Origin: TPA_inf: Saccharomyces
Lineage: Eukaryota
Direction: 5' to 3'
DNA length: 64,000 nucleotides
NCBI GenBank assembly: GCA_000146045.2
Contig: BK006934.2
Span: forward strand, 128,001 to 192,000
Every line of letters starts with the position of its first letter. The first letter of the stretch is position 1. The translations under genes were made by a program, and so were the position numbers. The notes beneath the pieces were generated by a model. That model did not search any database, was not told where the DNA came from, and saw only the letters and a program-made list of their open reading frames with translations. Positions 42,345 through 50,218 of the stretch are shown here, piece by piece.

Positions 42345-42798
42345 CTCCCAGAATTGTTATACACGCCCTTCAATTATTTCTACTATTTTGATAGCTTCAA
42401 TAAGAAAATCTGTGGCCTAGATTTGCTGACTGAATGCACAGTTCGTCTAATATATATATATATCTGGCAGACCAGGGTCTTCAATTAAATCTAAATATTT
42501 GTGTAGGATCTGATTTCCCTCACTTTTTTTTTCGATATATTCCTGGCTAGATCTCCTTTTTCAGTTTCTATTTTTAACACTGAAACTTTCCATTCTGCCA
42601 ACATTTCGCAGTCTTCTATAAAAAAAAAAAAAGATAATATAAAAATCGCCGCATACGTAGGCTTAGCTAAATAGATGGCTTCTAGATGAATATTTCGGGA
42701 TTCTGTTAAATTATACAGATAGGCTCACAAGTATTCGAACCTGTATAGAACAAGAAAAGAAAACTTCAACTAGAGTATATGCATTTATTCGTTGCAAG

Positions 42799-44970
42799 TC
42801 ATTTCAAAGTTTCTAAACGTTTATAGAAATCTTTTACTCTTTCATTGGTGCGAATCTTTCCTGGATCAAAGTTTAGGACCTGTAAGGTGTCCATAGTTAC
42901 CGCTCTTGACAGTGCAACATAAACTTGGCCGGCTTCGAAAATTCTCCTCAAGTCGACCTTTAGTCTTTGAATAGTTTGACCCTGTGCCTTATGAATGGAC
43001 AGTGCCCAGCATAGCATTAATGGAATCTGAGTTCTTTCTAACCCGACATTTTCTCTGGGAATATCAATGGGAAAGCGCTCTGGGACCATGAGCTCATGTA
43101 TGTACTTGTTTTTACCCACTGTCCACCTCACATAGGGGAATTTTTCCTTATGCGGAGAGATCTTAACTGCATAGTTTATCAAGATTTTCAAACGTTCCAA
43201 TCTAGCTAATGGCCTGGCATTCAAATCTTGACGAAACTCCTTTGATTCCTTTAACAAGGGATTACCAATGACCCGACTCACTAATCTCATGTCCATGACA
43301 ACTTCGTCATCCACAATCTTGTAAATTTCCTTCATTTTCACCACCAGCGATTCTGTAACAAAAAACAAAACTTTTCCCAATGATCCATTAACTAATTCTA
43401 CATCAGGCTTATTTTTCAACATCATTACCTGTGCATCTTCCTTCAATGCGACAACTTTTTCCACCATTAATGAAGAATCTAGTATCGCTTGGTATCTCTC
43501 GGGCGCGTTATCTACAGCTTTAAACTCATATAAATCACCAGGTAGAGACTGTAATTTCTTTACGTTGGATAGTTCAACTTCTCTTCTTGTGGCATACAGT
43601 TCTGTAGGAGCAATTCCATCGGCATAGTCTATATCCCTATTTAGGTTCCTTATTGTTTTAGCAATGTCGACAGTCAGCTCTCCGTATCTTATGGCATTTA
43701 GAATATCAATTAGTTTGTTATCCTGTTGTCTGAAAACCTTTGTCAGTAAAATCGTTTTTTGAATGCACCGTTTCCACATTTCACTTTCAAAACAAAATTT
43801 CACAACGTTATGCTCGTCCTTCTTAGCAACTGGTGGTAGTTGAAAAAAATCGCCTGTCAGGACCAATTGAATACCACCAAAGGGATCGTCGTTCTTCCGA
43901 ATTCTCCTTGCGATTTGCTCTAATTTATCCAACAGATTACCATCGACCATAGAAATTTCATCAATTATCAAAACTTTTGTATACCTCCATGCGGCCAATA
44001 AGTCCTTTTGTGATTGTATTTTTTTCACCAATTGGTCGATAGTTTTGTTCCCGATTCCTATACCAGACCACTTATGCAATGTGGAACCACCAATAGTCAC
44101 TGCCGCTAGCCCAGTTGAGGCGGTAATTGCAATTGATTCTTTCCCATACAAAGAGCTCAATTGTCTTATGATCGTTTGCAAAATGACCGACTTACCTGTA
44201 CCCGCACTACCGGTGTAAAAGACATTTGTTCTTTTTTTGACGATTAAATTAACCACTCTCTCTTGCTCCATTGTAAGTACCACTGGCGAAGACGCACTTC
44301 GGTGGTTCATTGAGTCCATATTTGATACTGTCTTTCTTAGCAGTGGTTTTATTTTCTTTGGTACTGTGAGCTTTAAACCTTGAAACTCCATAGAAGGTTT
44401 AGACCTCTTGGCTGGTCTTTCTGAATCAGTAGAAAGTTTCATGCTAGAATCTTCAATATTAATTGTACTAGTGAACGATAATTGTCTAGAATTGGATTTC
44501 ACGCTAGTAACCTCTCGCAAAGTCTCATCCTCATCAAAATGGTATGTTTTCTGAGTCGTGGACGCAGAGGCAGTCTTATGAAGAGAGCTGGTCATCGACA
44601 GCGATCTGCTAGACTTTTTATAGCTATTGAGTCTCGGCACATCTACCAATTTTTTGAATTCTGCGTCGGGATCATCATCTCCAAACGAACCTTGACTCTG
44701 CGAGAATAAGGAAGACGAATTATTCCGTATTAATCTTGGCCTAGGAGGTGCTGTTATATTACGGTTACCTTCGTCACCGCTTTCCAAATCAATTATTGTC
44801 GTGCTGTTTTTTGAAGCAGCAGCAGATTTTTTGCCGCAACCCATAAAGAACGAAGACAACGTTTGTTGCCTGTATGCGTGAGAGCCAGATGCCGAAGCAG
44901 CAGGTGTGCTACCATTTGAGGATCTTTTAGACCATTGCTTCTTGTTACCGGAGGCATGCGACCTGAACAT
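42799..44970 (-). CDS. RRM3: Pif1-family 5'-3' DNA helicase (723 aa)
   Basis: Ser-rich disordered N-terminus (with a PIP-like QQTLSSFF), then a helicase core (GSAGTGKS Walker A, DEISMV Walker B, …). Confidence 0.9.
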   Translation of the reverse strand: MFRSHASGNKKQWSKRSSNGSTPAASASGSHAYRQQTLSSFFMGCGKKSAAASKNSTTIIDLESGDEGNRNITAPPRPRLIRNNSSSLFSQSQGSFGDDDPDAEFKKLVDVPRLNSYKKSSRSLSMTSSLHKTASASTTQKTYHFDEDETLREVTSVKSNSRQLSFTSTINIEDSSMKLSTDSERPAKRSKPSMEFQGLKLTVPKKIKPLLRKTVSNMDSMNHRSASSPVVLTMEQERVVNLIVKKRTNVFYTGSAGTGKSVILQTIIRQLSSLYGKESIAITASTGLAAVTIGGSTLHKWSGIGIGNKTIDQLVKKIQSQKDLLAAWRYTKVLIIDEISMVDGNLLDKLEQIARRIRKNDDPFGGIQLVLTGDFFQLPPVAKKDEHNVVKFCFESEMWKRCIQKTILLTKVFRQQDNKLIDILNAIRYGELTVDIAKTIRNLNRDIDYADGIAPTELYATRREVELSNVKKLQSLPGDLYEFKAVDNAPERYQAILDSSLMVEKVVALKEDAQVMMLKNKPDVELVNGSLGKVLFFVTESLVVKMKEIYKIVDDEVVMDMRLVSRVIGNPLLKESKEFRQDLNARPLARLERLKILINYAVKISPHKEKFPYVRWTVGKNKYIHELMVPERFPIDIPRENVGLERTQIPLMLCWALSIHKAQGQTIQRLKVDLRRIFEAGQVYVALSRAVTMDTLQVLNFDPGKIRTNERVKDFYKRLETLK

Positions 44971-45343
44971 CGGGATGTCTTATAAGAACAAATCTCTCGA
45001 CTTTTGAGCTTGTTCTCCTCTGCTTATTGTTCGAGATGATGTTTATTTACATATTCTTTGACGTAATAATATCGGAATAATGCATGCGCATTCGGGTTAG
45101 CCCCGTTATAGGGAAAATGAAAAAAAAAAAAATAATAAAAAAAAAAAAGACTAAAAAAATAGAAGAGCACGGCAACTTAAAAAGAAAAAAAAAATTTATG
45201 ATAACTACAAAATAGTAAAGAACCCTGGCAAAAGAAATAAATCCGGTAAGGGAAGATAGACCGGCTTAAAAAGTACTTTTTCAGATTTGTCAAGGGTCTG
45301 TGTTAGCGGTGAAGAAGATAGAAGAAGAAGACGAAAGAAGACT

Positions 45344-47089
45344 ATGTCTAAACAATTTAGTCATACCACCAACGACAGAAGATCATCGATTATCTACTCC
45401 ACCAGTGTCGGGAAGGCAGGGCTTTTCACGCCTGCAGACTACATCCCACAGGAGTCAGAAGAAAACTTAATTGAGGGCGAAGAGCAAGAGGGTAGTGAAG
45501 AAGAACCTTCCTATACCGGCAATGACGATGAGACGGAGAGGGAAGGTGAATACCATTCGTTGTTAGATGCCAACAATTCGCGGACATTGCAACAAGAAGC
45601 GTGGCAACAAGGTTATGACTCTCACGACCGTAAGCGGTTGCTTGACGAAGAACGGGACCTGCTAATAGACAACAAACTGCTCTCTCAACACGGCAACGGT
45701 GGGGGAGATATAGAAAGTCACGGACATGGCCAAGCAATTGGACCGGACGAGGAAGAAAGACCAGCTGAGATTGCAAATACGTGGGAGAGCGCGATCGAGA
45801 GTGGTCAGAAAATCAGCACAACTTTTAAGAGAGAAACGCAAGTGATCACGATGAATGCGTTGCCGCTAATCTTCACCTTTATCTTGCAAAATTCGTTGTC
45901 ACTAGCATCTATTTTCTCCGTCTCACATTTAGGGACGAAAGAGCTAGGTGGTGTTACACTCGGTTCTATGACTGCTAACATCACGGGTCTTGCTGCTATT
46001 CAAGGTCTGTGTACATGTCTGGACACACTGTGTGCGCAGGCATACGGTGCCAAAAACTACCACTTGGTGGGTGTGCTAGTGCAGAGATGTGCTGTGATCA
46101 CCATCTTGGCGTTCTTGCCAATGATGTATGTTTGGTTTGTTTGGTCGGAAAAGATCCTAGCACTAATGATTCCGGAGAGAGAACTATGCGCGCTAGCGGC
46201 TAACTATCTACGTGTAACCGCATTCGGTGTGCCAGGATTCATCCTTTTTGAATGTGGTAAGAGGTTCCTACAATGTCAAGGTATATTCCATGCATCCACA
46301 ATCGTGCTCTTTGTGTGCGCACCCTTGAACGCATTGATGAACTACTTACTTGTTTGGAATGACAAGATTGGGATTGGGTACCTTGGTGCGCCATTATCGG
46401 TTGTGATCAACTACTGGTTGATGACGCTCGGATTACTAATATACGCAATGACCACCAAGCACAAGGAGAGACCACTCAAATGCTGGAATGGTATCATCCC
46501 TAAGGAACAAGCATTTAAGAACTGGCGTAAGATGATTAACCTAGCTATTCCCGGCGTGGTGATGGTGGAGGCAGAGTTCCTCGGCTTTGAAGTGTTGACA
46601 ATTTTCGCTTCCCATCTGGGCACCGATGCCTTGGGCGCTCAGTCGATTGTGGCTACGATTGCGTCTCTTGCATACCAAGTGCCTTTCTCTATCTCCGTTT
46701 CTACCAGTACACGTGTAGCCAATTTTATCGGCGCGTCGCTATACGACAGCTGCATGATCACGTGCCGCGTGTCCTTATTGTTGTCCTTTGTGTGCTCCTC
46801 AATGAACATGTTCGTTATCTGCCGTTATAAGGAACAAATCGCAAGTCTATTTTCTACTGAGAGCGCTGTAGTGAAGATGGTCGTGGACACACTACCTCTT
46901 CTTGCGTTCATGCAATTATTCGATGCCTTTAATGCGTCCACCGCCGGATGCCTACGTGGTCAAGGGAGACAAAAAAATAGGTGGGTACATCAACCTAGTC
47001 GCATTCTACTGCCTAGGTGTGCCCATGGCATATGTGTTAGCATTCCTGTATCATCTGGGTGTAGGCGGCTTATGGTTGGGTATAACTAG
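45344..47089 (+). CDS. ERC1: MATE-family transporter (581 aa), C-terminally frameshifted allele; the downstream +1-frame ORF (46902..47198) carries the last transmembrane helix
   Basis: The ORF-track start at 45287 is TTG; the first ATG is at 45344 ([15 protein letters not shown]…). Twelve-TM MATE core. The frame breaks at the A7 tract 46971-46977, and frame +1 continues …[45 protein letters not shown]… to 47198. Confidence 0.8.
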
Positions 47090-47547
47090 CGCGTTGGTAA
47101 TGATGAGTGTGTGTCAAGGATACGCCGTTTTTCATGGTGATAGACGCCGTATTCTCGGAGCGGCACGCAAGCGCAATGCTGAGACCCATACATCATGAAA
47201 CTCCTTCAGGGTCGAATGACGTATAGGGGAGATGCACACCCCCACCCCCGCATCACACCCAGTCTTCTAGCCAATTATGTTGGTAATTTTAAGGGTTTCG
47301 CCATGTGGCATGCCACCGGCAAAATAATACACGTGCCCGTACGGCACCAAACGGGCATGCATTTTTGCATTTGAAAAAGTTTGCTGCCCTTCATGTGCTT
47401 TTATGTATGCATACACATACACATTCGTGCATACATTCATTTATATATATATAGAGTGTGCATCGTGCATATGATTATTCATTACCACTTTTTTTGTTTT
47501 TGATTTTGTTCGTCAAAAGGAAGAGAAAAGGCATATCGAAGGGTGTA

Positions 47548-48819
47548 ATGACAAAAGCTTATACTATCGTTATCAAGCTGGGCAGTTCGTCGCTCGTCGA
47601 CGAGAGCACAAAAGAGCCAAAGTTGTCCATCATGACGTTAATCGTCGAGACCGTGACGAATCTTAAGCGCATGGGCCACAAAGTGATCATCGTATCCAGC
47701 GGCGGCATTGCCGTTGGTTTGGACGCTCTCAACATTCCGCACAAGCCTAAGCAGTTGTCTGAAGTGCAAGCGATTGCCGCTGTCGGACAAGGCCGTCTCA
47801 TCGCGCGCTGGAACATGCTGTTTTCCCAGTATGGCGAGCAAACAGCGCAGATCCTGCTCACGCGTAACGATATACTGCGTTGGAACCAGTACAATAACGC
47901 ACGCAATACAATCAACGAACTGCTGGCCATGGGTGTCATCCCTATAGTCAACGAAAACGATACGCTATCCATTAGCGAGATCGAGTTCGGCGATAACGAC
48001 ACGCTTTCTGCCATTACCGCTGCTCTTGTAGGGGCGGATTTCCTGTTCTTGCTCACAGATGTGGACTGCCTATATACAGACAATCCGCGCACTAATCCGG
48101 ATGCTCGTCCTATTGTTCTCGTGCCAGAGCTATCAGAGGGCCTTCCGGGCGTCAACACTTCCAGTGGTTCAGGCTCCGAGGTTGGCACGGGCGGAATGCG
48201 CACCAAACTCATAGCCGCCGACCTCGCCTCTAATGCCGGTATCGAGACTATTGTGATGAAGAGCGACCGTCCAGAGTACGTCCCGAAGATCGTTGACTAC
48301 ATTCAGCATCACTTCCGCCCTCCGCGCCATATCGGAAACGGCACACAGCAGCAGTTTCTCGATCTTCAGGATACGGAGCTCGAACAGTTGCGTCGCTACG
48401 ATGTTCCCATGCACACCAAGTTCTTAGCTAATGACAACAAACACAAGCTTAAGAACAGGGAATTTTGGATTCTGCACGGGCTCATTACCAAGGGCGCCAT
48501 TATCATCGACGAGAACAGCTATGATAAACTTTTGTCAAAGGATATGGCTAGTCTGACTCCAAACGCCGTGATCGAAGTCCGAGACAACTTCCACGAACTT
48601 GAATGCGTTGATCTCAAAATAGGCCAGCGGTTACCCAATGGCGAATTGGATATCTCGAAGCCGATTCAGTCTGTTGGATGCGTCCGCTCCAATTATACGA
48701 GTCTGGAGCTTGCGAAGATCAAGGGCTTACCCAGTGAGAAGATTCACGATGTTTTGGGCTACAGTGTGAGTGAATACGTAGCACATAGAGAAAACATCGC
48801 TTTCCCTCCGCAATTTTGA
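47548..48819 (+). CDS. YHR033W: Glutamate 5-kinase paralogue (PRO1-like), 423 aa from the ATG at 47548
   Basis: The ORF-track start at 47458 is GTG; the first ATG is at 47548 ([16 protein letters not shown]…). Amino-acid kinase fold plus a C-terminal PUA domain. Strikingly GC-rich codon usage. Confidence 0.85.
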
Positions 48820-48964
48820 GAATATTCCCTTTTTTTTACCGGATTAAAAAAAAAAAAAAAAATTCTGTTATAGATGCACATCATATCTCTCTCCTTTTTC
48901 CCGCTTTTATATATTCGTTCGTATTAGTCACAACAAAAACCAAAAGAATACTCGAAATGTTAGT

Positions 48965-49999
48965 TTATATATATATATATAGTGTGCGTTCTTTGCGGAT
49001 ATGGAAAATCTTGATATCTGCTGCATTCACGACTATGTCGCGCGGCAAAGGTATGCTCAGCTTACCGTTAATGTATAAAATATTCTCTGCGAAGTTGTAG
49101 CTCGGAGAGAACCGGTCCGGCTTCGAGTTCGGAGCTTTGTTCTCAATAAGAATTCGCAGCTTGTAGGCGGCCCCTTTGAACCTCTTCATCTTTACCTCGT
49201 ATTCCGGCACGTCCTCCTGCTGCTCGTGCGGTGCAGGTGCAGGTGCAGGTGCCTGTTTCAGGTTTCTGTGAGCAATCTCGTTCTTATCAATCTCCTCTAT
49301 CTTGGCTCCGGAGATTTTGTTCTCGATAGGGAACAATGGTGGTAGTGTTCCATCGTCGGGATCATTATTATCATCGCCATCGTCATTCCTTCCTCTCAAT
49401 ATACTCATCGGGTCTCCGGCCTCCTCTTCTATGATTTTATGCATTTTTGCCTTGTAATCTTGATGTAACTCATCATTCAATACCTCTAGTGCAGGAAGCT
49501 CAGCGCCCTTCTTCTTCATCTTGGGGAATGCAATGCGATCTCTGCACAATACCACCGAATCTCGGATCTCACATGACTCCAAGCACCATTCGACCAGTAT
49601 CTCTCGCAGTTGGATATCATCGCATATCCAGCGCGAGCAATCGCTATTTATGCAGCAATCCCACACATAGCACTCCTGCCCCTTCTTGTCATGGTCCATG
49701 CGGTAGCAGGATGTAATAATAGGAATCTCCCATTCGTTTTGGATGATGAGCGGGAACACTATCCTTGCATTAAAATCGACCTCAGGTTTGGGCACTAACG
49801 GAGAGTGACAAACATTGATGAACACCTTCCTGCCATCTTGCAGTTTTTCCGGCCCATTAGCGGATAATAGTTTTGTCTTAATTACAAAATCTGCGATGGG
49901 CTCAATTTTAGACACCGATCCGTCTGCAGCGTCCACCGACACGTACTTGTCCTCGTTTCTATGACGTTGCTTAATTGGTCTCAATAAGAAATCGGCCAT
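48965..49999 (-). CDS. PIH1: R2TP complex component Pih1 (344 aa)
   Basis: PIH1 N-terminal domain. Internal (GGTGCA)n repeat encoding APAPAPAP (49231-49254). Confidence 0.85.
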   Translation of the reverse strand: MADFLLRPIKQRHRNEDKYVSVDAADGSVSKIEPIADFVIKTKLLSANGPEKLQDGRKVFINVCHSPLVPKPEVDFNARIVFPLIIQNEWEIPIITSCYRMDHDKKGQECYVWDCCINSDCSRWICDDIQLREILVEWCLESCEIRDSVVLCRDRIAFPKMKKKGAELPALEVLNDELHQDYKAKMHKIIEEEAGDPMSILRGRNDDGDDNNDPDDGTLPPLFPIENKISGAKIEEIDKNEIAHRNLKQAPAPAPAPHEQQEDVPEYEVKMKRFKGAAYKLRILIENKAPNSKPDRFSPSYNFAENILYINGKLSIPLPRDIVVNAADIKIFHIRKERTLYIYI

Positions 50000-50218
50000 C
50001 GGTTAAGGTCTGTTTGTTCGCTTTGAAAAGTCTGTTCCCTGTATTCCTTTTTCTTCCATGCATATGAATTCAAGAATTCCTAGTTTTTTTCTATCATTAT
50101 TGTCTTCTGATTTTTTTTAAGGAAAAAAAATATCAAGAGTAAAAATAGTGATCAGGTACTGAATCCTGTATTTGTACAATACTGCAATCTAGCACCAAAT
50201 TTGGCCAAGGAAGTGCCT

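Follow-up and report, generated by a model that had tools for sequence, protein, structure and literature searches.

Within the window (the whole 64,000-nucleotide stretch of DNA analysed here, to whose positions all coordinates refer), the plus-strand coding sequence at 45344-47089 is ERC1 (YHR032W) in its truncated, S288C-type form, with 581 codons and a TAG stop. The initial annotation had recognised the gene as ERC1, a MATE transporter, and its product as the 581-aa S288C-type protein, and both identifications stand: an exact-sequence look-up returned Erc1p of Saccharomyces cerevisiae S288C (NP_011897.1 / DAA06723.1) as an exact match of the window protein, and the Pfam MatE family is matched with E=7e-67. 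The PF01554 MatE match falls in two stretches and scores 224.6 bits for the 581-aa protein, compared with 238.5 bits for the repaired 617-aa protein described below (cut-off 24.9); thus the truncated protein is still a strong MatE match, and a sequence score alone is no proof of lost function. In all of the loci that were fetched, the gene upstream of ERC1 is on the minus strand and encodes a PIF1-family helicase of 723 aa, and the genes downstream encode an AA_kinase+PUA protein of 423 aa and a protein with a PIH1 domain; the gene order in the window is that expected of the S. cerevisiae chromosome VIII locus. Identity to the window is 100% over 5.4-7.7 kb in four of these loci (L002, L003, L005 and L010).

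The coding region of ERC1 contains only one A/T run of at least six nucleotides, and this, the longest A/T run in the gene, is the A7 homopolymer at 46971-46977 (plus strand), flanked by a C at 46970 and a T at 46978. The sequence itself, a census of A-counts and an alignment to sister species (both given below) mark it as the site of a one-base insertion. Translated from the ATG at 45344, the ERC1 frame runs as far as the residues CLRGQGRQK, ending at K544, and then enters 37 unrelated residues (codons 545-581; 46976-47089, plus strand), in which hydropathy analysis finds no hydrophobic segment, before the premature TAG at 47087-47089. Beginning at the tract, the neighbouring frame stays open up to a TGA at 47196-47198 and encodes a 73-residue tail, which is the stranded genuine C-terminus (long-form residues 545-617; 73 codons plus TGA, 46977-47198, plus strand); it contains no secondary stop or further indel downstream of the tract. 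Deletion of one A joins the two parts in a 617-aa ORF ending at 47198, so the 581-aa protein is 36 codons shorter than the normal 617.

A 98-aa ORF at 46902-47198, to which the initial annotation had drawn attention, was considered as a separate gene and rejected: it has no Pfam match alone and its first 25 codons are out-of-frame ERC1 codons. It is the displaced ERC1 C-terminus only. Its coordinates derive from a mechanical list of ORFs, in which the portion from a TTG start up to the tract is out of frame; the part of the ORF from the tract to 47198 is therefore genuine C-terminus, as had been suggested, while the first 25 codons are a meaningless reading. Two other ORFs, at 47195-47374 (plus strand, 59 aa) and 47267-47440 (minus strand, 57 aa), lie in the intergenic region 3′ of ERC1 and are called as genes by some automated annotations of other assemblies; they have no Pfam match and are probably spurious.

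That the truncation is due to an extra A in the run, and that strains with A6 would encode a longer protein, had also been proposed initially, and the census agrees with both statements. Among 42 S. cerevisiae copies counted in fetched DNA, the window has A7, as do all 10 of the other short-form loci, and the 31 long-form loci all have A6; the long form is 617 aa and is conserved in sister species. The presence of A7 in other strains, which the initial annotation had named as a possible refutation, is confined to the laboratory-strain family, a few mosaic backgrounds and an engineered copy, and A7 occurs in no outgroup. At the tract, the A6 strains read CAA AAA ATA, encoding Q543-K544-I545, and the A7 and A6 alleles are exactly one repeat unit apart with identical flanking sequence. 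Direct alignment to Saccharomyces kudriavzevii and Saccharomyces mikatae shows that in both of these species the tract is interrupted (CAGAAGAT; C-AGAAGA-T, read as CAG AAG ATx) and likewise encodes Q-K-I. This interrupted tract in the outgroups, together with the long tails found in all orthologues, indicates that the long frame is ancestral and the insertion derived, and also that only S. cerevisiae has the pure A run. It follows that synonymous changes first produced a pure A6 run in S. cerevisiae, in which a one-base insertion then gave A7 in the S288C lineage; judging from the sequence context, replication slippage in the run would most simply account for the extra A.

The stranded frame bears the marks of a sequence under selection. 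When repaired, ERC1 is ~100% identical over its full length to 617-aa ERC1 proteins from numerous S. cerevisiae strains, Kyokai 7 (K7) and JAY291 among them, and is 95% identical to the 617-aa protein of S. kudriavzevii and 94% to the 615-aa protein of S. mikatae. Across an alignment of 32 orthologues from Saccharomycetes, the RGQGxQK motif is followed by 69-80 residues in 28/28 of those that possess it, as against the 37 unrelated residues of S288C. Of the 73 residues in the tail, 69-70 are identical to those of S. kudriavzevii and S. mikatae ERC1, so that only 3-4/73 change, and substitutions downstream of the tract fall at long-frame codon positions 1/2/3 in the numbers 4/2/34 for S. kudriavzevii and 4/1/28 for S. 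mikatae, a third-position share of 28-34 of 33-40. When the same nucleotides are read in the S288C frame, 18/36 residues differ between species. This contrast is the signature of purifying selection that has long acted on the long frame but not on the short one. Within S. cerevisiae, the locus alignment shows the tail to vary solely at position 47012.

To place the break within the protein fold we used an AlphaFold2 model of the natural long form (P0014), made with 32 aligned orthologues, which has a mean pLDDT of 76, rising to >90 in the C-terminal region. Twelve long helices span residues 161-596 of the model; the last three are TM10 (507-540), TM11 (543-568) and TM12 (572-596), after which comes one more helix at 600-614. 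The coding sequence of TM11 beyond the break (long-form residues 545-568, the helix starting at 543) lies at 46977-47048 (plus strand); its helix has pLDDT >90, coincides with a hydropathy peak at 551-569 and aligns to human MATE1 and AtDTX14. TM12 (residues 572-596) is encoded at 47058-47132 (plus strand) and is marked, besides the model helix, by hydropathy peaks at 571-596 and by the residues G575-L576-W577-x-G579, invariant in the 32 orthologues; the C-terminal amphipathic helix (residues 600-614), with an R610 that is also invariant in all 32, is encoded at 47142-47186 (plus strand). In keeping with the model, the hydrophobic stretch after K544 spans ~52 residues, which is room for two helices, and the break sits in a short loop directly after the conserved RGQGRQK motif. 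The frameshift thus removes TM11, TM12 and the C-terminal helix, and TM1-TM10 are retained. The initial annotation had described a single lost helix, the twelfth; TM12 is indeed stranded in the other frame, but TM11 and the C-terminal helix are lost with it.

The long form resembles the solved eukaryotic MATE transporters (human MATE1/SLC47A1, 9r10/9r1f; Arabidopsis DTX14, 5y50; Camelina MATE, 5xjj/5yck) in its 12-helix fold, with TM-scores of 0.86-0.95 on target length, in its two MatE Pfam repeats and in the RG-x-G-x-QK loop before TM11, at 24-29% sequence identity. By Foldseek, the model superposes on human MATE1 with a TM-score of 0.89 on target length and an rmsd of 1.8 A, and on AtDTX14 with a TM-score of 0.95. 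The sequence alignments of ERC1 to both proteins extend through the tail, so that the lack of MATE homology which might have been found there was not seen: the tail aligns to TM11-TM12 of solved transporters. The long form therefore has the complete 12-TM fold. The window allele, unlike the solved MATEs, does not, as its reading frame breaks off after residue 544, where TM11 is just beginning, and without TM11 and TM12 the six-helix bundle of the C-lobe (TM7-12) cannot be completed; it is a member of the MATE family by descent which encodes an incomplete fold. ERC1 also differs from the solved structures in an N-terminal extension of ~160 residues, probably disordered, which they do not have. 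Residues 1-160 (45344-45823) are acidic and little conserved, their mean column identity being 0.38 vs 0.69 for TM1-10, and the model assigns pLDDT <50 to residues 1-97 and 116-134.

We are highly confident, then, that the ERC1 of the window is the S288C laboratory-strain allele, in which an A6 to A7 frameshift truncates a 12-helix MATE transporter from 617 to 581 aa. An ancestral A6 run gained one A, upon which translation leaves the conserved frame after K544, adds the 37 unrelated residues and stops; the 10-helix product would probably be misfolded or inactive. The function of the A7 allele is most likely lost or strongly reduced, to which published allele swaps affecting MET17 noise and SAM levels lend indirect support.

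The ERC1 frameshift, its strain distribution and its phenotypic effects are already known from publications of 2013-2018. Fehrmann and co-workers (2013, Mol Syst Biol 9:695; PMC3817403) mapped a MET17 expression-noise locus to ERC1 and identified the frameshift in BY, by which, they noted, the last two predicted helices are lost. In that study the frameshift was confined to the laboratory strains BY4741/2, S288c, W303 and FL100 and the bakery strain CLIB324, a low Ka/Ks was measured, and a laboratory origin of the frameshift was proposed; reciprocal ERC1 allele replacement, with the frameshift introduced or removed, altered expression variability, with effect sizes of the alleles that depended on background (PMC3817403). 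Breunig and co-workers (2014; PMC3945093) used allele replacement to connect SAM and SAH levels with the slt2/erc1 haplotype, and Albert and co-workers (2018; PMC6072440) treat the frameshift as the known causal variant of an eQTL hotspot of 645 genes, among which methionine biosynthesis is enriched, with the BY allele linked to lower expression of the MET regulon. The high SAM and folate of sake yeast have been attributed to the K7 ERC1 allele (Kanai 2017/2020, cited in PMC11978678). The link of ERC1 to SAM phenotypes that the initial annotation named is accordingly on record, as are methionine phenotypes (PMC3817403, PMC3945093, PMC6072440).

Nothing material separates the window variant from the BY/S288C ERC1 frameshift of Fehrmann, Breunig and Albert: the gene, the frameshift, the 581-aa product and the loss of the last two helices are shared, and RM, K7 and wild strains have the long form. 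One figure differs. The RM protein extension is given as 43 aa in PMC3945093, while counting from the sequence gives 36 aa (617 minus 581) with 37 residues altered, and all of the long forms in the databases are of 617 aa. The A6 to A7 change, the interrupted tract of the sister species and the linkage to 47012-C are not spelled out in the available portions of Fehrmann 2013, Breunig 2014 and Albert 2018. As a coding variant of the laboratory lineage in a conserved gene, with trans-acting expression and metabolite hotspots, the window allele is like the S288C defects in HAP1, MKT1, AMN1 and GPA1 that feature among BY x RM QTL (Albert 2018), from which it differs in that its lesion is a one-base homopolymer insertion.

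The truncated allele has also been carried into the Sc2.0 synthetic chromosome VIII (GenBank CP134974; L007), in which, aligned to window 44687-47089, the A7 run is kept and the premature TAG has become TAA (window 47089 G>A). This copy has blocks of synonymous recoding in ERC1 at ~46375-46399, 46648-46714 and 46840-46867, and in the upstream helicase gene at ~44687-44713; since A7 is retained among these changes, the Sc2.0 design preserves the truncated laboratory allele. In the ERC1 promoter, an A-rich tract at 45118-45200 is variable in length: the synthetic copy and all seven A6 loci in the alignment examined (L011-L016 and L019) are one A shorter at 45120, and 15 bp (45122-45136) are absent from L006, an A7 locus described below. 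The length of this promoter tract could contribute to the reported cis-expression differences of ERC1.

The history of the A7 allele can be approached through a linked derived SNP at 47012 (plus strand), 35 bp downstream of the tract, where the window has C and nearly all A6 strains, as well as both sister species, have T; the change is synonymous (Cys) in the long frame. With the window counted, A7 occurs with 47012-C in 11/11 copies, whereas A6 occurs with T in 30/31 and with C in only 1/31, although the A7 copies are not independent samples, many of them being the same laboratory strain. A C at 46606 is likewise common to all A7 copies. The sole locus that combines A6 with 47012-C is L027 (Logan SRR23175492). 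We considered whether this could be an engineered, repaired BY strain and rejected the idea, as 3 kb of its sequence contain 7 mismatches to the window and it encodes E124K; from its sequence it looks like a natural haplotype, and is a plausible candidate for the precursor of the A7 allele.

Three further loci, L004, L006 and L008 (GCA_026954535.1, GCA_949121635.1 and ERZ922844), compared with window 42345-50085, have A7 and yet have flanks unlike S288C on both sides, with differences that include 45271 A>G, 45295 G>A and 46093 T>C upstream and 48426 A>G and a 5-bp deletion at 48846-48850 downstream. Their S288C-identical core around the tract spans only ~1-3 kb. Such a pattern fits a single origin of A7 followed by recombination of the flanks. 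The shared core haplotype (46606-C, A7, 47012-C), with L027 and these three loci, also raises the possibility that A7 is an older natural polymorphism and was not born in the laboratory; we offer this tentatively and think it on balance doubtful, and mosaic laboratory strains such as W303 could yield the same picture in L004, L006 and L008. Were A7 to pre-date the laboratory, a 10-helix Erc1p would have persisted and recombined in non-laboratory populations, and in certain niches it may be tolerated or even of advantage.

A7 might instead have arisen several times, by recurrent slippage in different lineages. Homopolymers mutate often, and recurrence could produce what is seen in the three haplotypes that have A7 but depart from S288C in both flanks. 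It would not explain, however, why all 11 A7 copies carry a C at 47012 that only one of 31 A6 copies has, or why all share the C at 46606; recombination around one common core haplotype explains this more simply, and we judge repeated origin improbable.

Runs of A are known slippery sequences for both polymerases and ribosomes, and the A7 tract might thus be conceived of as a recoding site, at which transcriptional slippage or +1 ribosomal frameshifting yields some 617-aa Erc1p from the S288C gene. The wholly intact long frame downstream of the tract in S288C accords with this, but such a frame is also expected after a recent mutation, the S. cerevisiae tail differing only at the linked SNP. 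Furthermore, a -1 shift leads to an immediate stop (QKK*), so that only a +1 event restores the frame, and the A7 allele behaves unlike A6 in the allele swaps of PMC3817403. An A6 or an interrupted tract gives the long form directly in the outgroups and in nearly all strains, so that no selected recoding signal is apparent, and we regard recoding as very improbable.

It is scarcely credible that the extra A was introduced by sequencing or assembly and that the real gene is intact. The sole point for this is that errors of homopolymer length are common with some sequencing technologies. Against it, the 581-aa product occurs exactly in 132 blocks of the assembly collection, including independent NCBI genomes and Logan/ENA assemblies of separate runs; all 10 of the loci read have A7; the run is reproduced in the design of the synthetic chromosome VIII; and the frameshift has been engineered in and out with phenotypic effect (PMC3817403). 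We give practically no credence to the converse polarity, in which the short form would be ancestral and the A6 strains a derived read-through extension, as no point was found in its favour, the outgroups and ~28 more distant Saccharomycetes orthologues have 69-80 residues past RGQGxQK, TM11 and TM12, which belong to the universal MATE fold, lie in the tail, and the third-position bias reflects purifying selection on the long frame.

The reading that we prefer, of a derived A7 frameshift in the laboratory lineage, concerns a variant that raises no new scientific question, because it has already been published with its strain distribution and phenotypes; our small additions are the linkage of A7 to 47012-C, the few recombinant A7 backgrounds and the presence of A7 in the Sc2.0 synthetic chromosome VIII. 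It carries a caveat nonetheless: the reference genome, most laboratory strains and the synthetic chromosome all have a putatively defective ERC1. Annotation pipelines that take the 581-aa ERC1 as the normal form should allow for its truncation and, as the A7 allele alters SAM levels, the methionine regulon and MET17 noise, studies of sulfur and methyl-group metabolism in the S288C background should allow for it also.
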